DNA of 64,000 nucleotides from Endomicrobiales bacterium (GCA_963794945.1 CAWCFT010000009.1:32001-96000), one strand, 5' to 3'; counted from the stretch's first letter, positions 37,522 to 61,645 are shown. Numbers and translations are program-made. Notes: generated by a model from the letters alone, not told the origin.

Positions 37522-38526
37522 TTAAATCATATTGCTGTCAATGAAACTCAACAATGTTTCAGCGTTCTTTTGTGGATCTTTGCCTATAATGAATTTATAT
37601 GTTTTTGCCTTTTTTACCGCCCTGGCGCAAACCATCACTCTTGACGCTACTATCCATGCTTTACCAAAAATATCTGCAGTATCAAACCTGAGGAAATACT
37701 CGACCATCTGCGGAAGCCCCAGCCCTATAACGCAGTCTCTCAGAAGCGCTATAAACACAGTTATCTTGCCAGCCTCAACAACCCTGGGGTTGTTCGAATA
37801 CTCCCTTACCCCCTTAAAAATAAAGCCTAGTTCCACCGGAGAAGATATCCTGCCGATGAAATATTGCGTGTCTATCAACAGCTTCCTGCCGTATTTTCTG
37901 CGGTCAAGGCTGCCGAGGAATTGAGGCGGGATATCGAAGCCTTTCCCATCGCCGACGCCAATTCGCGAAGGAAATGGAAGGAGCCGTGAATCCGACGAGA
38001 TTAACGGCGTATCATCTGAAACAAGCTTAACGCTCTTATTTTTTAAAAGCTCCATATACAGTGTAGTTTTTCCCCCGCCTTGAGGCAGCAGGCATACCGC
38101 GCCTTTTTTCTCGATAGAAAAACCGCACGCGTGCACCCTGTGCATGCCCTTTTTGTCCAGCATCTCGCCGACACGTGAAAGTATCATCAGATACGCTAGT
38201 TCATGGAGCAGTTTCAGATCAGCCGAGAACAATTCGCCTGATTCGGCCTTGTAATCGTAGACAGAGAGCGCTTTTCCGAAATAGTCAACATACCTTTTCC
38301 CTTTTTGGTCGTAAGATATAGAATCCGGCTGGTAGAGGCTGGCCATTACCTCCGGTATCCTTGACAGCGGCGGTTCCTGGTCCGCTATGACGAGCGTCAA
38401 AGATGGTTTATCAGAAATTGGTGTCTTTAAAAAAAACGAAAAGTCCTTGCTTAATTCTTCTTTCAGCCATGAAGGAAGGGCTATATCAACCGCTACTCCA
38501 TAAAATTCTAAAGTTAGTCTGTCCAT
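37522..38526 (-). CDS. HprK-related P-loop kinase-like protein
   Basis: VHACG, GGGKTT Walker A, VSDD acidic pair, in the order seen in the HPr kinase/PEPCK-like fold. Confidence 0.6.
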   Translation of the reverse strand: MDRLTLEFYGVAVDIALPSWLKEELSKDFSFFLKTPISDKPSLTLVIADQEPPLSRIPEVMASLYQPDSISYDQKGKRYVDYFGKALSVYDYKAESGELFSADLKLLHELAYLMILSRVGEMLDKKGMHRVHACGFSIEKKGAVCLLPQGGGKTTLYMELLKNKSVKLVSDDTPLISSDSRLLPFPSRIGVGDGKGFDIPPQFLGSLDRRKYGRKLLIDTQYFIGRISSPVELGFIFKGVREYSNNPRVVEAGKITVFIALLRDCVIGLGLPQMVEYFLRFDTADIFGKAWIVASRVMVCARAVKKAKTYKFIIGKDPQKNAETLLSFIDSNMI

Positions 38527-39552
38527 TTTTTAAACACTCCCCTGGCGAAGCCGATCCCGTAAGCCAGATGCGCGACAAAAGGCAGAATTATCAGCAAAGG
38601 CAAAGCGGTTATACTTTCGCCATATTTTATCATAATTGACGCCGCGTTGGTTAATGCAAATATTATATACGCGTATAACGGCGCCAGGTATAGCGGGTTA
38701 TTAGCATAGCCTGTCGAACACAGATATATAACGAAAAATGTAGGCAAGAGATATACAGGCCTGAGGCTTTTCGGCATTATCTTTGTCATCATCGCGCGGC
38801 CTTCGCCCGAACGGTATACCTGCTCGGCCAGGGAGAAGAGATCCTTTCTCCTGTGGTGGTACACGACCAGCTTAGGGCAATACAGGGCTTTATGCCCTTT
38901 ACCGAAGAATTGCTCCAGCAGCAGATTTTCCTCGTTGTAATGCAGCCGGCCGTCAAAATATATATTGGACGACTCGAATATCTTTCTCCTGAAAGCCAGG
39001 TTGCAGAGCGTCACGGAACTATCGTCACATACCCTCTCCGTTTCGCCGGGCATGAACCTTTCTCTCATTTTCCAGGCGGTAAATATTTCCGAGAAGGCGT
39101 AACCGGCTATACGCTCTATGAGCGGGCTGCCGGGCGGGGTAACGTTAGGCCCGCCGATAATATCAATATCAGCGCGTTGTTTGAATTTTTCTTCCAGCAG
39201 CGCGATATTGCCGAAGTCCGGGTAACAATCGTCATCAAGGAAATATATAAGCTCCGCGCCCGAATTTGTTATGCCCGTGTTTCTCGCTTCGCTTTTTGAT
39301 ATTTTATTTTCAAAGAAGACGCACTTGAACATCGGACCTGTGACGCTTAAGATGCGCAGATATTCGAATGTTTCCTTATTATACCCGTTAGCGACTATGA
39401 CTACCTGGAGGCCCGAGGCCTGAGATAGCACGTTCACGCACTTTTCAAGCGAACCTTTTCTCCCTTTGGTTATTATAACTACGCTAATTCTTGCGTTATC
39501 AAAAGGCACGAAAATCCCCTGAACCGTTACTGTCCTCAAATAATAAGTTCAT
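38514..39552 (-). CDS. GT2 glycosyltransferase with C-terminal TM helices (probable start 39552 with an early frameshift)
   Basis: ISVVII, ARNTG, FLDDD, GGPN, CNLAFRR, NEE, VYHHRR; GAGG-ATG at 39552. Confidence 0.85.
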
Positions 39553-39610
39553 TACACCTCGACAACATTTTAGGAGTGTATTTTGGATCAGGCTTATCAC
39601 TGACCTAGGC

Positions 39611-40438
39611 CTATTTTTCACTCTCGACAAGCCATACGTATTCATCGCACGGGCAAACCTCCGCCTCGCAGGGCATTGGCTTTTCAAACAGCTTAAAATC
39701 ATCATCGAAGAGGTTGCCGATCGGCTTGTGACTTAGAGGCCCGCACCGAGTTACTTTGCCGTCCGCTTTTATAGACGCGTATACCTGGCCAGACCGGCAC
39801 AACTTGCCTTTAGTCTTTTTACCTTCAAGATGGTATTTTACCCTTGAAATATCACCCATGAACGGTTCCATCATCTTACGCTCGGCTTCGCTGTACGAGT
39901 CCGGGTACTTTTTGCCTTCGTATTCCCCCCAGAAAGCCGCGAGGGCGAAATCGATGCCGTTTTCCTTGAATTTATTATAGTAGTGATCTATCTTTCCCAT
40001 ATTGGGAGGATATGCCAGGTAGCAAACACCCCCCTTGAAACCTTTTTTCTTCAACGCCTTGATCTTGCTTAAAAAGCTATCGTAGTTGCTGTCTTTGGGA
40101 TGAAAGTTCATATCCAGCACGACCCTGCCCGGGTCGACTTTCTCGGCAAAAGCGTACATGTCTCCCGAAAGCTGGCTTGTGACCTTGACCGTGTGCAGTT
40201 TTGACAGTTCTGTTATAAGCTCCACAAAGTTAGGGTAGATAGAAGGTTCGCCGCCGGTTATCATGATGTGGCACTCGCCGTGCCTGTCGTAGATCCGCCG
40301 CCACACTTTCATAAGCTCAGGTACCGACATATAGCGGGTTACTTTCTCCATCGTATCCCAGTTCTTGTCGAACCAGCAGTAAGGGCACCTGAAGTTGCAT
40401 TTGTAATGTATGTCCCAAACAAAATTTACTTTTTCCAT
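39611..40438 (-). CDS. Radical SAM protein with C-terminal twitch/SPASM-like domain
   Basis: CNFRCPYC, ITGGEP, CRSG...DGKVTRCG...GN...CEAEVCPC. Confidence 0.9.
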   Translation of the reverse strand: MEKVNFVWDIHYKCNFRCPYCWFDKNWDTMEKVTRYMSVPELMKVWRRIYDRHGECHIMITGGEPSIYPNFVELITELSKLHTVKVTSQLSGDMYAFAEKVDPGRVVLDMNFHPKDSNYDSFLSKIKALKKKGFKGGVCYLAYPPNMGKIDHYYNKFKENGIDFALAAFWGEYEGKKYPDSYSEAERKMMEPFMGDISRVKYHLEGKKTKGKLCRSGQVYASIKADGKVTRCGPLSHKPIGNLFDDDFKLFEKPMPCEAEVCPCDEYVWLVESEK

Positions 40439-40473
40439 TTTACCTCTTTAATTATAGTCTAAACATTACCGCA

Positions 40474-40656
40474 CTAAAACAGCACGTAAATGAAAGGAAC
40501 CACACTACTGCTTTGCGCGAATATTATCAAAAGGCCCAGACCCAACAGAACTACGAACATAGGCACAAGCCACCAGAGTTTCCGTTCCCAGAAAAATTGC
40601 CAGAATTCACCCAGTATCGAGAACCTAGACATAAATTGCTTTAATGTAACCATCAA
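40474..40656 (-). CDS. DUF5989 (SxtK-like) small membrane protein
   Basis: EFWQF..ERKLWWLVP...AQSS.V.PFIY.LF pattern. Confidence 0.75.
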   Translation of the reverse strand: MMVTLKQFMSRFSILGEFWQFFWERKLWWLVPMFVVLLGLGLLIIFAQSSSVVPFIYVLF

Positions 40657-40667
40657 ATTCTCCTTAT

Positions 40668-41780
40668 TTAGAGACCTTGATCTTTGGTTATTTGACCTTT
40701 ACCTGTCTTTATTGCCTCTCCCAGCATAAAACCGTTAGTGCAGGTGAGCCAGCAGTGGCATGTTTTCTTGTTGAAGAACTCTCTTATGTCTTCCGCTTTT
40801 TTCGACTGCCAAATACCGTCAAATCCATCCTCCAGAGCGTTTCCTGCTATAAGGTTTTTATGCACGGGACAGAAATACAGGTTACCGTAAGGGTCCAGCA
40901 TAGCGTATTTCTCTCCGCACGGGCAATCCGGGAAAAACCGTCTTCTTTCGAGTATATATTTCTCTATGTAATGAATGCCCATAAGCATGGACAGCAGGCC
41001 ATCATTGTTTAAAAGCATTGAATAGTCGGTGATGCCTGGAAAGTATTTAGCGATAATACCGTCTATGAGGGCATCCAGCTGGATGCGCACGGTTTCGATG
41101 TGTACATTAGTCCACGCGAACTCTTTTGTCTCCTTCTTCTGCACCATGACCTGGAAGGAGACGTGGTAGCCGTTATCACTGCACCACTGGTATGCTGGAA
41201 GCATTTGCCCACAGTTTTCTGGTGTCAGGGTGAAATTAAGGCTGAAGTAGAGCTCAGGGTACTCTTTTCTTATGAATTTAAGCGTGTTGGATAACAAGCG
41301 AAAACTGTCCTTCCTGCCCCTGATATTATCATGCGCCGCGCCTATGCCGTCCAGCGAACTGCCTATTGACACGTTCTTTAACCCTATTTCATTTTGTATT
41401 TCCCTGATATTATTTAAAGCCAGCTCGGTGTCTACAAGGTTCGAAAGAATCAGTATCTCCACTGCAGGGTAATTATTCCGCAGGTATTTAATTAATTCTA
41501 TCAGGTCTTCCTTAAGCCAGGCTTCCCCACCGCTAAGCACAATATAACGGACGTCTTTTAGCAGCTTAGCATCTTCGATCAACAACTTCCATTGTTCAAC
41601 AGTTAGCTCGTTTTCCGGCTTATTAATATAGCGAAGATTGCACATTATACAGTTAGTATTACATCTGTAGGTCAGCTCGATGTGCAGCTCCCTGGGCGGA
41701 ACGCAGGATACCTTATTTTTTAAAGCGCTTGATTCCAGCACTTTGCCGCATTTTTCCAGGAACTCTCTCGCTTTATTCAT
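40668..41780 (-). CDS. Radical SAM/SPASM-type protein
   Basis: ELTYRCNTNCIMC, SGGE, SLDG...HDNIRG, CPCG...DPYGNLYFC, CHCWLTC. Confidence 0.9.
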   Translation of the reverse strand: MNKAREFLEKCGKVLESSALKNKVSCVPPRELHIELTYRCNTNCIMCNLRYINKPENELTVEQWKLLIEDAKLLKDVRYIVLSGGEAWLKEDLIELIKYLRNNYPAVEILILSNLVDTELALNNIREIQNEIGLKNVSIGSSLDGIGAAHDNIRGRKDSFRLLSNTLKFIRKEYPELYFSLNFTLTPENCGQMLPAYQWCSDNGYHVSFQVMVQKKETKEFAWTNVHIETVRIQLDALIDGIIAKYFPGITDYSMLLNNDGLLSMLMGIHYIEKYILERRRFFPDCPCGEKYAMLDPYGNLYFCPVHKNLIAGNALEDGFDGIWQSKKAEDIREFFNKKTCHCWLTCTNGFMLGEAIKTGKGQITKDQGL

Positions 41781-43352
41781 AGCTTCCGGCGCTCCTAAGG
41801 CATTCGTCCATAAGCTGTCTAGTTAGCTCATTGTTTGATTCCAGGTCGAGTGATCTTTTAAAGCATTCCACCGCCTTTACTGAGTCATGATCGTACTTGT
41901 AATACTGCCCCAGAAGGAACCACTTGTCAGGCTTAACTCTCAGCACTCCGGATGTCTCTGGAAGGCCAAGCTTAAGCGCGGTAGCGCAAAACTCTTCATA
42001 TCTCCTGAACCGTTCAGGGTAATCATTTTTCCCTTCGTCCGATTTCCAAAAGAGATGGTGTTCGCTTCCGGTGATCCCGAATATTCTAGGGTTCTTTCGA
42101 ATATACGTCTCTTTTTCCAAAGTAAAGAATGACTGGCTGGCAAGTATGGAAGTGATATACGGCCTGGCCTTCGTTAGAAACTCAATCGTCTTTTCAAAAT
42201 CCCGTCTGGTCTCGCCCGGGAACCCGAACATTATGTTAATCTGGAAATCTATTCCGGCTTCCCGAGTGTCTTTTAGTATGCCAACGGCTTTTTCGATGTC
42301 GAAGTGCTTATTCATCAGATCAAGTATTCTCTGCGAACCGGATTCTATACCGTACCCGAGCCACACGCATCCTGCCTTTGCCATTTTGTTTAACAGGGCC
42401 CTGCTCATATCTTCGCGGACCATCGCCTGGCCGGCCCACTTGATTTTCGTATTGTTCTCTATCATCTTATCGCAAAAATCCTCAAGGACTTTCAGGTTCC
42501 CGTTAAGAAGCAGTCCGTTAAAATAGAAATAATTGATCCGCGGATAATCACGGACATGCTTTTTTATCTGTTCAAATATTCTGCCACCACTCATCAGTCC
42601 GGTATCTAGGCCAGAAAAGCCTCTCATAACAGAAATGGCAAGCGTTTATACATCCGCGGGAATCTAGTATATCAAGCCTGTGTGGTTCGCTGTATTTATT
42701 ATCCCTTATGTCACTGTCAAAATCACTATAATCCGGAAAGGGCATCACGTCCAGGTCTTTAACATAATCCGGCACGCCGCAATCCTCTACTATTTCCCCG
42801 TCTCGTTTTACCAGAAAACCATTTTCTAAAGGCAGCTCGCCAGCCTTTAAAATCCTCCAGTTTAGCTAACAGGTTTTTGAGCGGTATATCCGCTTCGCCA
42901 GGACACACGTAATCTACGAACGGCTGCTTTATAAAATCCAAGGCCATCTGAGCGCGCGAAGCTTTGTGACCCATGAAAATATTAATAATTCCCGGGTAAT
43001 TTTCCTTGAGCCTTTTTGCTATTTCATAGCTGACAAGTACTGACGGCGTGTGCGTAACGAATACAGCTACTCGCGCGCCTGTGCCGCCGATAAGTTTGAC
43101 GTATTTTTCGAAAACAGTTTCAGGTATGGCCTGGCTGATAAAAGCTTTATTTTCCCAGATTGAATAAAAGTCCCTGTCTTCCCAGTACTTTCGCCTTTCA
43201 GGCTCGGCATCGTGATACATCCTGTTGTTAAGGTCGAAACACGACACCTCGTGCCCGTTACCGCGAAGGTATGCCGCGAAATATCCAAGTATATAGGGCG
43301 GGCAATACCTTACCCACCACGGAGAGTTAATCAAGGCGACTTTTATAGACAT
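41773..43352 (-). CDS. B12-binding radical SAM protein with C-terminal TPR-like helix pair, two frameshifts (~42830, ~42600)
   Basis: N-terminal cobalamin-binding domain (PPYILGY, VDYVCPGEAD), SRGCINACHFC, GIESGSQRIL..MNK, FGFPGET. Confidence 0.85.
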
Positions 43353-51898: not shown

Positions 51899-52753
51899 TC
51901 ATCGCGCCAGCCCCCTGCGCCTGCAATTACTTTCGATACAATTTAGGGGAAGCTCTAAAAGCTTTAAGTCATATTTGAAAATATTGCCCAACAGCGGGCC
52001 TTGCAATTGGCCACAAGGCCTCACCGAACCATCGACCCCAATAACTGCAAAATCCATGCCGGCATTACAGCAAGCACCTGATGATTTTTGATTTGTTTCG
52101 AGATTTATCGAACCAGATGAATCTCTTTCTTCACAAAGCATATTCATGTCATCTTGATCCTTACCCCATCTTTCCGTAATATCCATTAATTTTAGTTCTT
52201 CAATTGAATATGCGTGCGGATATTCTTTGCCATTATATTTGCCGCAGAATTGTGTCAAAGCCATATCGATATTTAAACCTTTAAAATACCTCTTGTAGTT
52301 AAGCATTTCTCTCAGTTGAAGTGGATGCGCCAGATAGCATACATTACAGATAAACCCTGCTTTTCGCAGTTTTATGACATTGCCGGCAAATTTAAAGTGA
52401 TCAGTTTTAAGAGGATGAAAAGTGGAATTAATTTCCACCTTTGAAGCGTCATTCTTTAAGATAAACTCTTCCAAAGGGACAGATAGGTTAGTTGTAACAT
52501 GAATAACATGCATTTTACTTAATTTGTATATAATATCAGCAAATCCCGGATAGAGAAAGGGCTCGCCTCCAGTAATGTATATCTTAATCGGTCCGTGCTC
52601 ATCATAAATATTTTCCCACGCGGAGCACACTTCATCCACGCTTCTGTCCGTACCATGCTGCTTTTTGATGTTATCCCATCCTGTTTGCGTAAAAAAGCAA
52701 TATTCACACTTGTAATTGCACTCATATCCCATATCCCAGGTAAATATCTTCAT
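51899..52753 (-). CDS. Radical SAM protein with twitch/SPASM-like C-terminus, paralog of 39611..40438
   Basis: CNYKCEYC, ITGGEP, CCNAG...DGSVRPCG...GNI...CIESNC. Confidence 0.88.
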   Translation of the reverse strand: MKIFTWDMGYECNYKCEYCFFTQTGWDNIKKQHGTDRSVDEVCSAWENIYDEHGPIKIYITGGEPFLYPGFADIIYKLSKMHVIHVTTNLSVPLEEFILKNDASKVEINSTFHPLKTDHFKFAGNVIKLRKAGFICNVCYLAHPLQLREMLNYKRYFKGLNIDMALTQFCGKYNGKEYPHAYSIEELKLMDITERWGKDQDDMNMLCEERDSSGSINLETNQKSSGACCNAGMDFAVIGVDGSVRPCGQLQGPLLGNIFKYDLKLLELPLNCIESNCRRRGLAR

Positions 52754-52848: not shown

Positions 52849-53946
52849 TCATTTTGAAAGTTCCACAAAACACATCTCATTATCAGCCGCAATATCTATC
52901 AACTTAAAACCGCTGGCGGCGGCCATTCCCCCGATTTCAGTTATTCCAAGCTTATATTGTATCACATGTTTACTTACAGTCACAGAATCACTGCCAGGAC
53001 CATTATAGGATTTGCCAAGCACGGCCGACCATATCTTTCTCTTTAATACGTTAACTGCCTTCTCTTTGAGGTCGATCCACGAAATCAATATCCTCCCGTT
53101 CTGCGAAAGGCACTTTTTAAGCTTCTTTAATGTTTCAAGCTGCTTTGCGGGATCCAGAATATTAAGCATTCTGGCAAATATGATGTAGTCATATTGTTCA
53201 TCCGAATTAATGTTGTTTAAATTAATAGTTTTCACTTGCTTTCCCTGCCTTATTAATTTTGCGGCTTCTTCGGAATAGCCTCCGGACGACTGGATGTCAG
53301 CTATATTCTTTTCTAGTCCAACGTTTTGTATTTTACTTTCTGTAATCTTCAGGCTTTGCTGCCATTTTTCTAAAGATACGCCCATATTTGACCGCAATAA
53401 TATATAATTTTTATAATAGCTTAAATCGGTTTCAGGTAAAATTAACGATAGTATTGCTTTAATATTAAGGCGGAACCGCTTCAAAACAAACGAAATATAA
53501 GATAAATTTAATATATTAATCGTGATAGAACAATATAGCAACAAAATACTTATGCTTTTCCCGATCGGCGAATCGAGGTTAATTTCATATCCATTCTTTT
53601 TTATCCTCACAACTCGGCCCAGGATATCATCATAAATAACAAGCCTATCATCTTTAGCCACGTTGTTATCGCCCTTTGTGCAGAAACAAGGCCCGTTTTT
53701 GCCTTTAACCTTTTTTATAACTCTATGCGCGGTATTGATGTCCAACGACCTGTCAATATTTTCATAAACAACTATATCTCCAACACGAATTATATCGGGA
53801 GATACCTTTTTAACAAAAAGTGAATCGCCGGATATCAGAAGGGGCCACATACTTCTCCCTTTTGACTTAAATATTACCTCATTTCCTTTTACAAGCGACT
53901 CTTTACCCAGTTCGTTCAAAGTCTTCCGAAATTTTGCTGAATCCAT
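52849..53946 (-). CDS. S26/S24 signal-peptidase-like domain fused to a degenerate class I methyltransferase-like domain
   Basis: GRSMWPLL..GD, GDIVVY, AHRV, TKGDNN..D; hydrophobic segment; then YDYIIF...L.KLKKCLSQNGRILI. Confidence 0.72.
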   Translation of the reverse strand: MDSAKFRKTLNELGKESLVKGNEVIFKSKGRSMWPLLISGDSLFVKKVSPDIIRVGDIVVYENIDRSLDINTAHRVIKKVKGKNGPCFCTKGDNNVAKDDRLVIYDDILGRVVRIKKNGYEINLDSPIGKSISILLLYCSITINILNLSYISFVLKRFRLNIKAILSLILPETDLSYYKNYILLRSNMGVSLEKWQQSLKITESKIQNVGLEKNIADIQSSGGYSEEAAKLIRQGKQVKTINLNNINSDEQYDYIIFARMLNILDPAKQLETLKKLKKCLSQNGRILISWIDLKEKAVNVLKRKIWSAVLGKSYNGPGSDSVTVSKHVIQYKLGITEIGGMAAASGFKLIDIAADNEMCFVELSK

Positions 53947-54004: not shown

Positions 54005-54925
54005 CTATATTAATAATACACTATACTCATTTGTAATTTTCTTAATAATCATTTTTTCAATTGTTTTACTGAACTTCATAGGGCAATATCCGCTGTAGCA
54101 GGACCTGGATATTGTGATAATGGCAGGGTTGATAGCTTTATTTTTCAGCGTGTCGAATATTCTATTAATCTCTCCGTTTATAGCTTCGGTATCCTGAAAA
54201 TATTCTTTCACTCTGGACTTTTTATGGCTAACAACAACAATATACCTTCCATTGTCTTTAGAGAATTCTAACTTAATATTATCGTACAACAAATATTTAT
54301 TTTTCGATAATAATTCCCTTTTTAAATATTGCCCGCGCGTTATTTCAATAGTGTGAAACAGCTCATTGCCGACAGAATCCCTGCAGGCAAAATAGTCCAG
54401 ATCAATATCAAGCAATACTTTTTTATTTTGCGGAATATGATCCATATCACATATATGTGAATCGAAATGTTTTATGTCGGGGAAAGCTTTGGTGAACATT
54501 TTGTTTTTTATAGGCGGTTCACTGCTTTTCTCGCACTTAATTATTTTCCCTTCCCCAAAAACAGAATAGACGATCATTTTGTGGTCTTCGGGTTTAATTT
54601 TTCTCCATTTTGGAAATACAAAATAAGCGTTTTTTACTATTCCGCCAAGAATGGCCGGTAGGATAAAACTTCCTATATCGATTTGCATATCACCGCGGAT
54701 AAAATCATTATAATAACCCGCGTAATCGGCGTATTTATTCTTTGGTATGTAAATCGATTTTGACAGCGTATTCGGCGTACCCATATCGCTATGCGCATCC
54801 AAGTGCAATATATCCAACGGCTCATTAATATTATTTTTATTTTTTTCTTTATGCCAGCAATAAAATGATTCATTGTGTTCGTCAACAATATAGACTGGAA
54901 TTCTATTATTTTTTTTGGTTATCAT
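54005..54925 (-). CDS. UPF0489 arginase-fold protein, candidate peptide arginase
   Basis: VDEHNESF..W, HLDAHSDM, LDIDLDYF, ITISRS..SGY metal-ligand motifs. Confidence 0.75.
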   Translation of the reverse strand: MITKKNNRIPVYIVDEHNESFYCWHKEKNKNNINEPLDILHLDAHSDMGTPNTLSKSIYIPKNKYADYAGYYNDFIRGDMQIDIGSFILPAILGGIVKNAYFVFPKWRKIKPEDHKMIVYSVFGEGKIIKCEKSSEPPIKNKMFTKAFPDIKHFDSHICDMDHIPQNKKVLLDIDLDYFACRDSVGNELFHTIEITRGQYLKRELLSKNKYLLYDNIKLEFSKDNGRYIVVVSHKKSRVKEYFQDTEAINGEINRIFDTLKNKAINPAIITISRSCYSGYCPMKFSKTIEKMIIKKITNEYSVLLI

Positions 54926-55186: not shown

Positions 55187-56299
55187 TTACACTTTTAAGT
55201 CGGTATTTAAAACCCTCGTTTCAGGGAAGAGACCTTCATCGCGGGCAATTTTACAGAAGACAAAAGGCGCTAAAAACGATTTTTGCTCCCAATAAGCTTC
55301 CGCCCTGCATTTTCCAAGGCAGAAATTCTTCATCATGCACTTCCCGCAAATTCCCTCAAGCTTTAAAGGCACGTCTTTTCTGATAATATTAAGAATCTTG
55401 TTATTTTCCCACACCTGCTTAAGTTTTGTGTCCTTAATATTGCCCATATTGAGTTCTTTAACGACACTACCTATTCCGCAAATTGATATTGTCCCATCAC
55501 CCGTAATACCGATTATAGACTTTATTCCGCATACGCACTTTTCAGTTTTGAGCTCTTCTATTGTTTTAAACGCCGGAGGAATATCAAAACACAGCTTGAG
55601 TTTTTTCTTAAGCCTTGGTCTGGACATATAGCTTTTCATTTTTTTATTTGTTTTGAGTATTTCGCCAATAGTAAGCAATTCGCCTTTACTCTTCATAATA
55701 TCCGCGCGGGAAACATTCATTATCGGGTTTATCTTCAGGCTGTTCACCCGCAAGGCCGCGCAAAGATCTATCATTTGTTTCATTTTACTTTTGTTTTCGT
55801 TCCAAAGGCTGCATATTACTTGTAAACTTAGCCCGGGGTTATATTTTCTCAACTGCCTTATTCCGTTTACAGCATTTTTGAATGACCCTTTTACATTCCT
55901 GAGTTTTTCGTGTGTTTGTTCATCAGGCCCGTCCAATGATACCGCTACTTGCATCACTTTATAATCTCTTACAGCCTTAGCCTCTTTCTCGCCGATCAGG
56001 GTGCCGTTTGTTTCAATATGCATGTTCAATTGATTCTTTTTGATCCATTTAAACAGCTCTATAATATCTTTTCTTAAAAAAGGTTCTCCGCCGGTGATCT
56101 TCACTGTTCTAAGCCCCAGCTTTTTGGCTTGTTTTAGCGCGTTTATTATATAACGCAGCTCAATGTCTTTCTTGTTGCCGCCATTGTCATCAGGCATACC
56201 AGTAAAATCGGGGTTTATCCAGCAGTGCCTGCAGTTAAGGTTACAGTATTTTGAAAAATATAAATACACTGATTTTAAAAGATATTTTTTTGTTTTCAT
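55187..56299 (-). CDS. Radical SAM/SPASM peptide maturase, ScmF-like
   Basis: YLYFSKYCNLNCRHCWI.P, KITGGEP, IETNG, CG...G.ISICGIG, LEGICGKC.....CLGKC.A. Confidence 0.85.
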   Translation of the reverse strand: MKTKKYLLKSVYLYFSKYCNLNCRHCWINPDFTGMPDDNGGNKKDIELRYIINALKQAKKLGLRTVKITGGEPFLRKDIIELFKWIKKNQLNMHIETNGTLIGEKEAKAVRDYKVMQVAVSLDGPDEQTHEKLRNVKGSFKNAVNGIRQLRKYNPGLSLQVICSLWNENKSKMKQMIDLCAALRVNSLKINPIMNVSRADIMKSKGELLTIGEILKTNKKMKSYMSRPRLKKKLKLCFDIPPAFKTIEELKTEKCVCGIKSIIGITGDGTISICGIGSVVKELNMGNIKDTKLKQVWENNKILNIIRKDVPLKLEGICGKCMMKNFCLGKCRAEAYWEQKSFLAPFVFCKIARDEGLFPETRVLNTDLKV

Positions 56300-56302
56300 C
56301 GC

Positions 56303-57337
56303 TTAGTTTTCCCTTTTCCAGCAGTAAAGTTCAGTATTTTTAATCCCTCCGGGATAATGGTACGGGTAACACCTGTGCCCCCAGAAACAGATATACTGAT
56401 GCTCGCATTCAACGCATTCCGGCATTTTTGTAATATCAACATGCAGATCCTTCCTGAAACTCCGCAGCACTTTTGAATTTTTCCAAATCTCCTTAAAGCT
56501 GTTTTTGTAAAGGCTCCCGGCTTTTACTTCCCAAATAACTTCACACGGAGTCACTGATCCGTCAGGCCGAATAGCGCACCTGGAAGTTGCCGCACCGCAG
56601 GGTGGGACTGTTATTTCCTTCATTTTAGGTTTAAACTTGCCAAGCCCTTTCAATTTATCATTCTGCTGCAGGTACGAGCCCGTTATAAAACCCGGGTATA
56701 GTTTCGAAAGCTTGACAATTTCTTCGATCGCTTTCCGCTCTTCATCAGGTGAAACATACACTTCCTTAAGGAAACACGCTGCGTTCCCGCCGTAAAATAC
56801 GTGGTTAAACCTGACACTGCTTGCTCCGATCTCTTTTCCAAGCTTTACAACTTTTTCTATATCTCCGATATTAAGCTTGGTCACGGTAAACGAAAGAAGC
56901 GCCTGCCCGCCGTATTTGATAATATTTTTTATTCCTGCTACGGCGCGGTCAAACGTATTTTTGCCTCTTTGCCTTTCATGCGTACCTTTTGCGCCGTCTA
57001 TGGACACAACGTAAGACCTAATATTAAAATCTTTTATTAGCATTTTTGCCATTTTATCCGTCATAAGAGTGGCGTTAGTGTTCATCGAGATCTTAATTTT
57101 ATACTTTCGGAACCTTTCAAGAAGAGCCGGCAGGTCCTTCTTTACAAGCGGTTCCCCGCCAAAAATTGAGACATTGAATACTTTTGCCCGGCCCACTTCG
57201 TCGATAACGCTAAGCATCTTTTCAGTGGACATATCTCTTTCCCCCCAGCTTTGCTTGACTCCGCAATGCCTGCATCGTTGGTTGCATTTGCCTGTTACAG
57301 TGAAACATAATGACGTAGGTGCGGAATATATCTTCAT
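56303..57337 (-). CDS. Radical SAM/SPASM peptide maturase, ScmE-like
   Basis: AP.S....TGKCNQRCRHC, GGEP, NTNA, SIDG..HERQRG, CGA....AIRPDG.VTPC, CVEC.....C....C. Confidence 0.85.
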   Translation of the reverse strand: MKIYSAPTSLCFTVTGKCNQRCRHCGVKQSWGERDMSTEKMLSVIDEVGRAKVFNVSIFGGEPLVKKDLPALLERFRKYKIKISMNTNATLMTDKMAKMLIKDFNIRSYVVSIDGAKGTHERQRGKNTFDRAVAGIKNIIKYGGQALLSFTVTKLNIGDIEKVVKLGKEIGASSVRFNHVFYGGNAACFLKEVYVSPDEERKAIEEIVKLSKLYPGFITGSYLQQNDKLKGLGKFKPKMKEITVPPCGAATSRCAIRPDGSVTPCEVIWEVKAGSLYKNSFKEIWKNSKVLRSFRKDLHVDITKMPECVECEHQYICFWGHRCYPYHYPGGIKNTELYCWKREN

Positions 57338-57533: not shown

Positions 57534-57797
57534 TTAATCCGCCCGCAACAGTATCTTTGATTTAACCAGGTCTTTAATTATGTTATTAATATCATCTTTA
57601 ATGTCATCTATTTTAGCCACGTAGGCCTTTGACAGCTCACCGTAAATATTTTCAATGTCCAGCCCTTTGTTTACCATTTGCCATACCTCACTGCCTGTCT
57701 TGTTAAGGTAACAATTTTCATTTGTATCAATGTTTACTATCACAACCTCGCCGTCAATATCCCGCCAAAGAACATCCTTGTTAATTTTATATTTCAT
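57534..57797 (-). CDS. PqqD family / RiPP recognition element (RRE)
   Basis: WRDIDGEVVIV, YLNKTGSEVW, I...LS..Y, DDI..II.DL...KIL; 87 aa. Confidence 0.9.
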   Translation of the reverse strand: MKYKINKDVLWRDIDGEVVIVNIDTNENCYLNKTGSEVWQMVNKGLDIENIYGELSKAYVAKIDDIKDDINNIIKDLVKSKILLRAD

Positions 57798-58074
57798 TTC
57801 CCGCCTCCAGCAAGCCGTCCTTTTTCATTTTTTTAATGAATAATAATATATCCGGCCTTATCTTTTTATTGTTTTTGCCGTACTTATCTGTTGCTTTTGC
57901 GATAATATCTTCGATGCTGTATTTTCCGTTGCAAAACCCGCATATATATGCGCCGGTTTCATTGAGCGTTTCCATACTCCCTGTTTCCGAATTAAATACA
58001 ATAGCCTCTTTGCCTTCGCGCCTGAAAACTATTTTTGGGTTTATAACGAAATAAATATTTTTCCTACTCATCAA
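57787..58074 (-). CDS. PqqD family / RRE (ScmD-like)
   Basis: NPKIVFRRE..EAIVFNSETG...LNETGAYI...CNG.YSIEDI, DILLFI..M...GLL; GGAGG RBS. Confidence 0.9.
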   Translation of the reverse strand: MMSRKNIYFVINPKIVFRREGKEAIVFNSETGSMETLNETGAYICGFCNGKYSIEDIIAKATDKYGKNNKKIRPDILLFIKKMKKDGLLEAGNEI

Positions 58075-58329: not shown

Positions 58330-58539
58330 TTAGTCCAGCGGAGCTGTGCCTGGCCCACATGTGCTAAAAGGATAGCTACCTCGGACACATTCCCCTTCCG
58401 AAACACCACTACTACCACCAACGCACAGCGGAAGCGCACTGTATCCGGATGCTTCAAACTTGTAGTCTGTTTTGTTCCCGAATAGTATCTTTTCAGGTTT
58501 TATCCATTTCATCTTGCTTTGCTTCTTCCTGCTTTTCAT
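58330..58539 (-). CDS. RiPP precursor P1 (3 x CxxG)
   Basis: MKSRKKQSKMKWIKPEKILFGNKTDYKFEASG-YSALPLCVGGSSGVSEGECVRGSYPFSTCGPGTAPLD; GGGAGA RBS. Confidence 0.85.
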   Translation of the reverse strand: MKSRKKQSKMKWIKPEKILFGNKTDYKFEASGYSALPLCVGGSSGVSEGECVRGSYPFSTCGPGTAPLD

Positions 58540-58559
58540 CTTTCTTTCTCCCAAAACAA

Positions 58560-58619
58560 CTTACACCATTGGTTAGCTGTTGTGTTATGACAAGATTGCT
58601 GGAAGTTTTCAACATCTGT
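58560..58619. repeat. 60-bp spacer repeat, copy A (between P2 and P1)
   Basis: 49/60 identical to 59631-59690 by manual alignment. Confidence 0.8.
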
Positions 58620-58837
58620 CACCATTCTATTATAGGCCTGTTACCAGTATTGCAAGTGTTTACTCCGACAGCGGCACCACCGCCATTACATATATAGCCT
58701 GCAAAACCTTCACCACCGGTGACGCACTGAAAATCGTATCCGGATGCTTCAAACTCGTAGTCTATTTTGTTCCCAAATATTATCTTTTCGGGTTTTATCC
58801 ATTTCATCTTTTTATGTTTCCTGATGTTTTTATTCAT
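58619..58837 (-). CDS. RiPP precursor P2 (3 x CxxG)
   Basis: MNKNIRKHKKMKWIKPEKIIFGNKIDYEFEASG-YDFQCVTGGEGFAGYICNGGGAAVGVNTCNTGNRPIIEW. Confidence 0.85.
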   Translation of the reverse strand: MNKNIRKHKKMKWIKPEKIIFGNKIDYEFEASGYDFQCVTGGEGFAGYICNGGGAAVGVNTCNTGNRPIIEW

Positions 58838-58890
58838 TTTTCCCAATCCTGGAATCTGGCCTGCAATGGCCAGGCATCTCGCCCGTACTG

Positions 58891-59178
58891 CTACTGCGCT
58901 ATCGGCGCAACAGTAACAATTTGACCGTCGCTACACGCATTCCTGCTAGGGCCAACAGCGCTGATACCTAGGCTACAATCATACAAAGCAGTGTTACCGT
59001 ACGTACAATCTGACGCATTGCCGCTACCACTAATACAACCGAGACCAGCAACACAAGATGCCGCATCGCCAATACCAGTGGAACAATTGGCAGCTACAAT
59101 CATTGCTTCATTCCCAAAGGAGATTTTTTCAGGTTTTATCCATTTTATTTGTTTTTGTTTCCTAACGTTTTTATTCAT
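58891..59178 (-). CDS. RiPP precursor P3 (6 x CxxG)
   Basis: MNKNVRKQKQIKWIKPEKISFGNEAMIVAA-NCSTG..CVAG..CISG..CTYG..CSLG..CSDG.. Confidence 0.85.
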   Translation of the reverse strand: MNKNVRKQKQIKWIKPEKISFGNEAMIVAANCSTGIGDAASCVAGLGCISGSGNASDCTYGNTALYDCSLGISAVGPSRNACSDGQIVTVAPIAQ

Positions 59179-59376
59179 TCTTTATCCAATTACTAGATTA
59201 TTGAAAACCCCAACAAGGCTCAACTTGATCATCCGGACTTCATCTACATTCACTCGCCCTCTTTCTATATTTGTTTCAATTAAATCAAGACAGGGCCCAA
59301 TTTACCTGTCATGCAATCGTAATTATTCTAGGGTTAGAATAAACATCACCACTTAAGCTGAAGAAAGATTATAAAG

Positions 59377-59613
59377 CTACCTCAACATGGGGTTGCCGCC
59401 TCCAGTACAATCGCTAGAAGGGTACGAACCGCCTGAACAGTGCAAGCCTTGGTTACCTGGGGTACACGAAAAAGCGCCTCCACCACTACTGCATTGGTTA
59501 GCATCACTGCCGCCGGAAGTACAATTAGCAGATGAAATAATTGAGTCATTACCGAATACTATCTTTTCAGGTTTTATCCATTTCGTTTTACTTTGCATCT
59601 TTCTGTTTTCCAT
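59377..59613 (-). CDS. RiPP precursor P4 (5 x CxxG)
   Basis: MENRKMQSKTKWIKPEKIVFGNDSIISSA-NCTSG..CSSG..CTPG..CSGG..CTGG.NPMLR; AAGGAG RBS. Confidence 0.85.
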   Translation of the reverse strand: MENRKMQSKTKWIKPEKIVFGNDSIISSANCTSGGSDANQCSSGGGAFSCTPGNQGLHCSGGSYPSSDCTGGGNPMLR

Positions 59614-59630
59614 TATTTCTCCTTCAATAG

Positions 59631-59690
59631 CTTACGCCATTAGTAAACTGTTGTGCCCTGACAAAATTGCCGGAAGTTTTCTATATCTGT
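59631..59690. repeat. 60-bp spacer repeat, copy B (between P5 and P4)
   Basis: 49/60 identical to 58560-58619. Confidence 0.8.
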
Positions 59691-59695
59691 TAAAT

Positions 59696-59899
59696 TTATT
59701 CTGCAGCACCGACGCCCGGAGTGCAAGGACTTCCAGTATCGTCGGAACCACCGTTACAAAGAAGAACAGCACGATTGCCAGGGCCACACTGATGGCCGAT
59801 ATCGTATCCAGCTGCTGTAAACTCGTGGCCCAAATTGTTCCCGAATACTATCTTTTCAGGTTTTATCCATTTTATCTTACTTTGATCTTTTTTTGTCAT
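59696..59899 (-). CDS. RiPP precursor P5 (3 x CxxG)
   Basis: MTKKDQSKIKWIKPEKIVFGNNLGHEFTAAG-YDIGHQCGPGNRAVLLCNGGSDDTGSPCTPGVGAAE; GGAGA RBS before ATG 59899. Confidence 0.85.
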   Translation of the reverse strand: MTKKDQSKIKWIKPEKIVFGNNLGHEFTAAGYDIGHQCGPGNRAVLLCNGGSDDTGSPCTPGVGAAE

Positions 59900-60019
59900 T
59901 TTTCTCCAAGTTGCTTGTGCTTGTTCTGAACACAACCTTTTGCTGTATCTCCTTGGCAAAGCCACATCAGTCATCTGTATGGATACAGCGTACGCAAAAA
60001 GTTCCGCGGATATACGCCG

Positions 60020-60271
60020 CTATAACATTTTTATAGGGCGAATACCTGGGTTGCAAGGGCTGCCATCTCCACCGCCTGTCCAGCAAGCGGTATAATCAGC
60101 GCCATTGCCAGAGCTACACATATTACCAGACGGTTGAGTCGAGCCATCTTGACAACCTGCAGGTATAGTGTATCCAGCTGCATTAAAATTGTCACCCATA
60201 TCGTTCCCAAATGTGATTTTTTCAGGCTTTATCCATTTCATGTTATTTTGATTCTTTCTGTTCTTTGTCAT
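60020..60271 (-). CDS. RiPP precursor P6 (4 x CxxG)
   Basis: MTKNRKNQNNMKWIKPEKITFGNDMGDNFNAAG-YTIPAGCQDG..CSSG..CWTG..CNPGIRPIKML. Confidence 0.85.
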   Translation of the reverse strand: MTKNRKNQNNMKWIKPEKITFGNDMGDNFNAAGYTIPAGCQDGSTQPSGNMCSSGNGADYTACWTGGGDGSPCNPGIRPIKML

Positions 60272-60296
60272 TTTCTTTTCCAATATTATTTATAAT

Positions 60297-61567
60297 CACT
60301 TCTGTCCGGTTAAAAAGCGAACGCCATTGTTAGTTGGCGGTCTGTGTTTTTGATTTTAGGCAGCAATCGATCATTCAAATTAAGTAAGTCAATGAGATTG
60401 AGGCGTTCAAGAAGCGTTTCCTGAATGACTTTGTGCAGGTAGAACAGTGAATATTTATATTTTGACTGATATTTGATGTAAGACAGAAGCAAGTAGTAGC
60501 ACATGGCAATCCAGATCTGCGTAAGCACAGCGTTCTTTGAAGTGCCAAAGAATGTTTTGATTTTAAGGTTCTGCTTGATCCACTTGAAAAAGACTTCAAC
60601 TTGCCAGCGGGCTTTATAGATACCAGCAATAGTAGAAGCGGCAAGCTTGAAGTTGTTGGTAATAAAAACAAGCAGTTTATCGGTTTGCTTGTCATAGTAA
60701 CGGATCAAGCGCAGTTCTTTGGGATAATCCTGCTTCTGATAAAAGCCGTTCAAGGCGATAATTTCATCTGAAATTACGCTGTTTTTTGATGATTCAGGAT
60801 GCTGTCCGGAAACAGTGTAATTGATGTTGTCTTTGGCTCTGGTAACGAAGAAAGCGCCTACTGTGTCTATTGAATTAAACCAGGCAAAGTCTATATAGCC
60901 CTTGTCCATGCAGTAGATGCTGTCCGGCACAATGTCAAAAGAAGAACGGGCAACGGTTATTTCGTGCTTTTTGGCATCTGTGACAACCATGAACGTGGGT
61001 ATCTGCCCGGCATGGTCTAACTGGCAATGCAGTTTTATAGCCCCTTTGGTAGTGCGGAATTTTGCCCATGAAAACATTGACAGGCACAAGTCAATGACTG
61101 TGGCGTCAAAAATGAACAATGGGTTTTTAAACTTGAATTTGTGTGTAGGGGTTATATTCTTACAGCGTTCAAGCAAGGCATAAAACAACCCTTCATATAT
61201 GCGGTAGTCGCGTTTCTGGTTGGCATCGGCAAGAGTAGAACGGCGCACAATGGCAAGGCCGACATGGTAGAGCTTTCCGGCTTGCGCCAGAAAAGCATTA
61301 ACAATATCACGCAAGCTGTCCTTGCCGCTGATTTGGGCATAAAGCATGACTGTTAGTTGTTTCCAGCAATTGAAGGTTTTGACGTATCTGTCCCCGAAAT
61401 GACGAGAAACGAGGTTTTCAAAACGATGTCTCGGAATAAACGTTTGCAATTGGTTCATGATAGTGTTATAATGCATCTTATCAATCCTCCGTCAGTAGAT
61501 TTGTTCCTTTGCAGAAACATTCTACCTGATCGGGGGATTTTATTCAAATTTTAACCGGACAGGTGTG
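60297..61567 (-). mobile_element. IS4-family insertion sequence, 1271 bp, with 9-bp target site duplication
   Basis: Terminal IRs CACTTCTGTCCGGTTAAAA / TTTTAACCGGACAGGTGTG (17/19 match); direct repeat ATTTATAAT at 60288-60296 and 61568-61576. Confidence 0.93.
60310..61476 (-). CDS. IS4-family DDE transposase with DUF4372-type N-terminus
   Basis: SLRDI, RSTLADAN, FDATVIDL, IKLH, DKGY, FVTRAK, YKARWQVEVFFKWIKQNL (YREK signature). Confidence 0.93.
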   Translation of the reverse strand: MHYNTIMNQLQTFIPRHRFENLVSRHFGDRYVKTFNCWKQLTVMLYAQISGKDSLRDIVNAFLAQAGKLYHVGLAIVRRSTLADANQKRDYRIYEGLFYALLERCKNITPTHKFKFKNPLFIFDATVIDLCLSMFSWAKFRTTKGAIKLHCQLDHAGQIPTFMVVTDAKKHEITVARSSFDIVPDSIYCMDKGYIDFAWFNSIDTVGAFFVTRAKDNINYTVSGQHPESSKNSVISDEIIALNGFYQKQDYPKELRLIRYYDKQTDKLLVFITNNFKLAASTIAGIYKARWQVEVFFKWIKQNLKIKTFFGTSKNAVLTQIWIAMCYYLLLSYIKYQSKYKYSLFYLHKVIQETLLERLNLIDLLNLNDRLLPKIKNTDRQLTMAFAF

Positions 61568-61645
61568 ATTTATAATAATTAATAACTGCCTTTGTTCTGA
61601 AGCCCGATCACGGATTTCCGGCAATACAAACACATTATGTGAGGA

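Follow-up and report, generated by a model that had tools for sequence, protein, structure and literature searches.

Tandem CxxG-repeat precursors beside a divergent ScmE/ScmF radical SAM pair in an Endomicrobiales bacterium suggest a poly-ring sactipeptide-like pathway

The window, a 64,000-nucleotide stretch of DNA from an Endomicrobiales bacterium that was analysed as a whole, carries six short precursor genes in tandem beside genes for two RRE chaperones and two radical SAM/SPASM enzymes. The system represents a divergent, arginase-bearing form of the SynChlorMet cassette known from the databases, and its scores lie below the cut-offs of the SynChlorMet models. With a probability of roughly 55%, we consider that it belongs to a poly-ring, type 2 sactipeptide-like pathway in which each C-x-x-G unit would be closed into an unnested ring between the Cys sulfur and the C-alpha of the Gly at +3.

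Six precursor peptides with a strict CxxG motif

Six tandem short ORFs with the common leader KWIKPEKIxFGN occupy the minus strand from 58330 to 60271.

60020..60271, minus strand, start at 60271: precursor P6, 83 aa; four CxxG units (CQDG, CSSG, CWTG, CNPG); one core Arg
59696..59899, minus strand, start at 59899: precursor P5, 67 aa; three CxxG units (CGPG, CNGG, CTPG); one core Arg
59377..59613, minus strand, start at 59613: precursor P4, 78 aa; five CxxG units (CTSG, CSSG, CTPG, CSGG, CTGG); C-terminal Arg
58891..59178, minus strand, start at 59178: precursor P3, 95 aa; six CxxG units (CSTG, CVAG, CISG, CTYG, CSLG, CSDG); one core Arg
58619..58837, minus strand, start at 58837: precursor P2, 72 aa (62 aa from a later Met); three CxxG units (CVTG, CNGG, CNTG); one core Arg
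58330..58539, minus strand, start at 58539: precursor P1, 69 aa; three CxxG units (CVGG, CVRG, CGPG); one core Arg, inside a CxxG unit

The original prediction placed every Cys of these cores in a C-x-x-G motif, and our recount agreed: Gly stands at +3 in 24/24 cases, and all 24 four-residue motifs are exactly those given at the time. Its spacing of mostly 9-12 residues was also reproduced (16/18, with the outliers of 6 and 14 both in P3), as was the odd Cys count of four peptides (3, 3, 6, 5, 3 and 4 Cys in P1 to P6). Gly makes up 18.5% of the 336 post-leader residues. When the six peptides were shuffled internally 200,000 times, CxxG units arose most often 4 times and at most 14 times out of 24, compared with the 24/24 observed. 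Considering that the six are paralogues whose leader DNA repeats, this test overstates their independence, and the family-wide CxxG count given below is the stronger test.

Five of the six precursors are present among the database proteins called on the contig, P2 in its shorter form from the later Met. P4 was the sole peptide to match the ScmA model TIGR04252, and did so weakly (18.6 bits, cut-off 35), while a leader HMM that had all six among its training rows gave them 15-24 bits. Each core holds exactly one Arg and five cores have no Lys. No further precursor genes were found elsewhere in the window's own genome.

RRE proteins and the ScmE/ScmF pair

Downstream of the precursors on the same strand lie two RRE genes and the genes of the two SPASM enzymes, the latter only 3 bp apart.

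57787..58074, minus strand: RRE/PqqD-family chaperone 1 (ScmD-like); PF05402 49.4 bits, above cut-off; TIGR04248 28.4 bits, cut-off 100
57534..57797, minus strand: RRE/PqqD-family chaperone 2; PF05402 39.9 bits, above cut-off; TIGR04248 20.2 bits, cut-off 100
56303..57337, minus strand: ScmE-like radical SAM/SPASM enzyme; best match TIGR04250, 158.9 bits, cut-off 400
55187..56299, minus strand: ScmF-like radical SAM/SPASM enzyme, proposed thioether synthase; best match TIGR04251, 317.5 bits, cut-off 400

A search with a ScmF alignment yielded 160 loci that were fetched for comparison, 80 genomic and 80 metagenomic, from 491 and 526 confirmed stretches, respectively. Seven SPASM cysteines of ScmF (C257, C274, C318, C321, C327, C331 and C349) are kept at 100% in 139 sequences, and canonical ScmE likewise has seven. 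The clade of the window's ScmE carries an extra Cys254, and His321/Cys323 replace the usual Cys321. The accessible text of PMC12093266 assigns three cysteines of the seven-Cys SPASM motif to Aux I, and, judging from Cys254 and His321/Cys323, Aux I may be fully ligated in this clade.

The predicted pocket of ScmF is near-invariant (E96, S121, G275, I276, K189, N191 and R198 at 93-100%; W27, K67 and T69 formed part of the locus search patterns and are not counted), and the corresponding positions of ScmE vary widely in 102 sequences. The ScmF model (pLDDT 90) folds like SkfB, SuiB and CteB at 16-20% identity, and the C-C crosslinker SuiB scores as well as CteB against it. No solved sactisynthase is close to either ScmF or ScmE, and the chemistry therefore cannot be read from homology. 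Of the two, we regard ScmF as more likely to be the thioether synthase. It may work together with ScmE, as in thuricin CD, where two radical SAM enzymes cooperate on thioether formation according to the same accessible text (PMC12093266); the choice between them rests on pocket conservation, because canonical ScmE also carries seven SPASM cysteines. The closest relatives of the window's ScmF are P0002-P0007 (54-65%). In a quick tree, from which loci L090-L169 were left out, it grouped with six metagenomic rows adjoining Omnitrophota enzymes, apart from a clade of Chlorobium, Syntrophobacteraceae and methanogen rows.

Among the 64 ScmF loci of at least 15 kb, ScmE occurs in 57, an RRE in 59, ScmC in 53, a detected precursor in 49 and an ABC exporter in 31, with S24/S26 and nucleotidyltransferase genes present in many of them as well. 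That two SPASM enzymes are kept together so often could mean that they act in series towards a product that differs from a simple thioether or goes further than one, for example an oxidised Gly thioaminal, a heterocycle or a cleaved backbone. The unusual invariant charged pocket of ScmF (E96, K189, N191, R198) and the possibly complete Aux I ligation of the window's ScmE clade would fit such a course. However, the two radical SAM enzymes of thuricin CD serve one thioether reaction in the account cited above, and the widely varying ScmE pocket gives little reason to expect a second conserved reaction; we thus regard serial action as rather unlikely.

Conservation of CxxG across ScmF-associated precursors

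To mine related precursors, 63 seeds were chosen by their leader pattern, number of Cys and Gly content, regardless of spacing, and two were discarded as spurious. The leader HMM, built from the Cys-free seed leaders and the window's six, was run over all reading frames at 5 bits, and 116 distinct precursors, a few of them probably false, were left once duplicates and matches with one Cys or none had been dropped. CxxG accounted for 601/710 Cys in this set, against a shuffle maximum of 173. The remaining 109 comprise 43 in CxxxG, 42 off-register extras, 15 isolated ones that lack a Gly and mostly lie in leaders or Cys-rich tails, 6 in CC doublets and 3 at the C-terminus. Among the 57 non-seed peptides found by the leader-only HMM, the proportion was 293/364 with a shuffle maximum of 92. 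A mined peptide holds 0 to 10 units at a modal spacing of 10-11, and apart from three CC doublets its cysteines are at least 7 residues apart, the minimum in the window being 6. The original prediction took CxxG for the modification unit; these homologous precursors bear it out as a conserved unit of the whole family, and that the unit is crosslinked is what we infer from it.

A precursor profile matched 2,482 cluster representatives (E <=0.001), some unrelated tandem repeats among them. Among 147 new representatives listed, 137 short proteins had 794/826 Cys in CxxG, a figure that is circular because the profile itself contains the motif. The top long matches P0174, P0175, P0177, P0178 and P0275 were rejected as unrelated tandem repeats. 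P0176, P0181 and P0264 are family members of 214-265 aa, and P0176 (265 aa) has 21 Cys, each with a Gly at +3 or +4 as counted by eye.

With respect to the residues around the unit, all 20 types occur at +4 in the mined precursors, Ser being the commonest (169/600), followed by Gly (109) and Thr (83), with Pro 29 times; Ala or Pro stands at +6 in 56% of the units. The ranthipeptide motif of PapB is CxxxD/E. Asp or Glu occupies +4 in 0/24 units of the window and 21/599 of the family, and since this position takes every residue type, the units are not PapB-like, in agreement with the original prediction. Where the unit varies, the Gly is displaced to +4, which gives the 43 CxxxG cases, 22 of them with Pro at +2. 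The precursors of L050 (10213-10419) and L086 (7266-7553) are CxxxG throughout, and that of L168 (2397-2606) is so in both of its units; these peptides are natural ring-size variants for a comparison of the enzymes. CxxN or CxxD without Gly at +4 was found 7 times, always at an extra or leader Cys and never in a repeat unit.

These patterns bear on whether the Gly is the acceptor or a turn residue, a choice that the original prediction had left between the two. Thioethers might form while Gly(+3) only provides a tight turn, the acceptor lying at +4, at the Ala or Pro of +6 or upstream of the Cys. The mostly small residues at +4 and the frequent Ala/Pro at +6 would suit this, as would the many residue types that can serve as sactionine acceptors. 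However, Asn and Asp commonly replace turn glycines and never do so within the repeat units, the 20 residue types at +4, Pro included, cannot all accept equally well, and the Gly travels with the register shifts. The family data therefore favour Gly as the reacting residue, and an acceptor elsewhere seems unlikely. Strict Gly could also be steric, because sactionine acceptors need not be Gly, as Ser28 of streptosactin illustrates.

As proposed earlier, simple disulfide pairing is unlikely, since odd Cys counts occur in 4/6 peptides of the window and in 43/75 all-CxxG peptides of the family. A small repeat fold with free, disulfide-paired or metal-binding Cys and no radical SAM crosslinks could draw on the regular spacing of 10-11, which might suit a Cys ladder, on long members such as P0176 and on the minority with extra off-register Cys able to pair, but it is very improbable given these odd counts, the RRE-type leader, the adjoining RRE and SPASM genes and, as weak evidence, an AlphaFold2 model of P4 without secondary structure (pTM 0.20). 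The precursors of L137, L078 and L059 are Cys-rich (13-16 Cys) with extra off-register Cys, possibly combining rings with disulfides.

Accessory genes

Three further genes lie downstream of the ScmF gene.

54005..54925, minus strand: UPF0489 peptide-arginase-like protein, probable accessory enzyme; PF12640 62.9 bits, above cut-off
52849..53946, minus strand: S24/S26-type peptidase domain fused to a weak class I methyltransferase-like domain, probable accessory enzyme; TIGR02228 63.2 bits, above cut-off
51899..52753, minus strand: third radical SAM protein, membership doubtful; at least nine paralogous matches elsewhere in the genome

The arginase-like protein resembles OspR (8BRP, E 1.7e-25; NF052474 161.7 bits, cut-off 350) and has the three PF12640 metal motifs intact (DAHSD, DEHNESF and LDIDLDYFAC). 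Its gene was seen in 0/160 other ScmF loci and has no paralogue in its own genome; it was not found in 401 genomes of the phylum, nor in five genomes with related loci, where the controls were also silent. At least one Arg is present in 59/115 mined cores and 102/137 representatives listed, and exactly one in 24/115 and 46/137, respectively. The chance of an Arg in all six cores of the window would be 0.02-0.17 for six independent draws, but the six are paralogues. The single Arg per core is therefore only suggestive as a sign of arginase action, being a post hoc observation on sequences that are not independent.

The peptidase fusion resembles S24/S26 ORFs in 14 ScmF loci, and its methyltransferase-like domain is a lead only (Pfam E 0.0013; Atlas scores <0.9). 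The third radical SAM protein may be unrelated to the system. A dense run of radical SAM genes on another contig of the genome (C13, 3429-20049) includes six paralogues of it.

Genomic setting and distribution

On its other side, the precursor array meets an insertion element.

60285..61579, minus strand: IS4-family element with 31-nt inverted repeats, context rather than part of the system; NF033592 287 bits

Its repeat ends 13 nt upstream of the P6 start, and no clear target-site duplication was seen. Because the insertion separates P6 from its former upstream DNA, the element may now be required for expression of the precursors or may disrupt it; a promoter and terminator scan of the locus gave nothing usable. 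The Scm block has a GC content of 0.36-0.42 compared with 0.45-0.48 for 36-52 kb, and is bounded by a tRNA-Val gene on one side and the IS4 element on the other. ScmF was found in 0/60 genomes of the same order and 1/400 of the same phylum, with no plasmid match. Low GC, flanks and rarity together suggest that the block is an acquired island.

In window 1-48300, many genes are apparently split into overlapping ORFs, among them what we take to be genes of a polyphosphate kinase-like protein, RND pumps, a catalase-peroxidase-like protein and a PheS-like protein. Such splitting suggests assembly indels in the contig; the reading frames of the precursor and Scm genes are intact. A second cluster at 37522-43352 on the minus strand, which comes after tRNA-His and tRNA-Arg genes, encodes an HprK/ScmC-like protein, a glycosyltransferase, two radical SAM/SPASM-type proteins and a B12-binding radical SAM protein that is apparently split (42759-43352 and 41773-42627). 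This cluster could act in trans or be unrelated. Elsewhere in the genome, contig C14 (51081-60232, plus strand) holds a cassette of ScmC-like, RRE, radical SAM/SPASM and S24/S26 genes directly before the gene of a 1953-aa protein. No CxxG precursor was found for this cassette, whose substrate may be the adjoining protein.

Proposed pathway

The genes, the motif, its conservation in the family and the enzyme families are observations; the chemical steps, the ring-forming enzyme and the accessory roles that we propose from them are as follows. P1-P6 would be ScmA-type RiPP precursors whose W-x-K-P-x-x-I leader is bound by an RRE, which would present the core to the two SPASM enzymes. In a possible complex with ScmE, ScmF would take a hydrogen from the C-alpha of the Gly at +3 of each Cys and bond this carbon to the Cys sulfur. 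Each CxxG would thus become a separate 12-membered sactionine ring (-2 Da), with 3-6 unnested rings per peptide in a type 2 topology. Conversion of each core's Arg into ornithine (-42 Da) is the probable task of the arginase, and leader removal that of the S24/S26 domain. A local reaction rather than a hairpin is proposed because the module repeats up to 10 times with free spacers.

An elaboration that we think unlikely is that six 'beads-on-a-string' peptides are made, each with 3-6 Cys-Gly rings and one ornithine, possibly methylated, and that the second SPASM enzyme carries out a further, hitherto undescribed radical reaction on each Gly thioaminal. If true, a family of about 2,500 profile-matched representatives, some with about 20 units, would gain its defining chemistry and would constitute a RiPP class of its own instead of adding to the type 2 sactipeptides.

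SCM loci occur widely across anaerobic and uncultured lineages, and the family has database names; no paper on its chemistry was found in the literature searched, most subscription papers lying outside the search. With six natural substrates for one enzyme set, at spacings of 6 to 14, the locus is a good test bed for the linkage, for how ScmE and ScmF share the work and for arginase action on a new precursor type. A tolerant enzyme able to make a small ring of any C-x-x-G would be useful for stapling peptides.

Comparison with known systems

The catalogued SynChlorMet models (NCBIfam) are TIGR04252 (ScmA), TIGR04249 (ScmC), TIGR04248 (ScmD), TIGR04250 (ScmE) and TIGR04251 (ScmF). They give the best family matches for P4, ScmE and ScmF of the window, where precursor, RRE, ScmE- and ScmF-type genes are co-located, although all of these scores are below cut-off. 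A [YW]xxP leader with CxxG repeats also occurs beside enzymes above cut-off (ScmF of L148, 640 bits; ScmE of L122, 641 bits), and TIGR04252 is a narrow model that 0/49 mined relatives pass and 7 match weakly. In contrast with the typical cassette, the window has no adjoining ScmC, nucleotidyltransferase or ABC exporter. TIGR04249 had no match in the 86%-complete genome; our own ScmC profile found relatives on contig C14 and at window 37522-38526 (46 bits), neither adjoining the cassette. The six tandem precursors differ from the single one in 80/95 loci, six being present elsewhere only in L137, scattered over 12 kb, and the arginase sets the window apart from the other loci.

Nothing on the Scm family was found in term searches of PMC10114670 and PMC7470986. 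The accessible precursor sheet of PMC10288494 contains at least two Scm-type CxxG precursors (EFK06542 and PKN39435), each with two radical SAM enzymes and labelled as 'Other Uncharacterized' singletons among putative sactipeptides and ranthipeptides, and the six new predicted sactipeptide groups of that paper could, as far as this material goes, include the Scm family. According to the same material, StsA and BlaA carry nested Cys-to-Gly sactionines (PMC10288494). StsA/StsB and BlaA/BlaB resemble the present system in this linkage, in a discrete RRE and in the WIKPE found in some of the leaders listed there. Unlike it, they form a nested hairpin from a CxCxC...GxGxG core, and the StsB model reaches 84 bits on either window enzyme (cut-off 625).

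The window shares with PapB repeated local thioether units that would be made by a SPASM enzyme, and differs in having no Asp/Glu at +4 and in a PapB model score of about 75 bits against a cut-off of 340. Enteropeptins combine a sactionine with Arg-to-ornithine conversion and methylation, a logic that the present system may share; its arginase-like protein carries the PF12640 motifs, whereas the enteropeptin arginase belongs to PF00491 and the enteropeptin ring joins adjacent residues. CxxG-repeat peptides do not appear among the precursor types given for PF12640 arginases (OspR/FlmR/OhkR) in the accessible text of PMC12703449.

The nearest precedent is streptosactin, whose rings, in the accessible text of the reviews, are Cys25-Ser28 and Cys31-Gly34 (PMC8172795, PMC9389541, PMC13361665). 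Made by the SPASM enzyme GggB, they are unnested four-residue rings, one of them exactly Cys-x-x-Gly, and their 6-residue Cys spacing equals the outlier of P3. An unnested layout of alternating donors and acceptors would be possible at the spacings of the window and the family, which is a matter of compatibility only. In streptosactin there are two rings, a single enzyme and control by streptococcal quorum sensing, in contrast with the 3-6 units, two enzymes, discrete RREs and strict Gly of the window, and no GggB/QmpB model was among the 25 matches listed for the window enzymes. Because the Cys31-Gly34 ring is Cys-x-x-Gly, the linkage that we propose has precedent. The original prediction consequently over-valued the novelty of a Cys-to-Gly(+3) ring, which was already known from streptosactin (accessible text of PMC8172795), in a cassette already catalogued as TIGR04248-TIGR04252. 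Taken as a whole, the proposed linkage is known chemistry, and the novelty would lie in the ring number and in assigning this chemistry to the Scm family.
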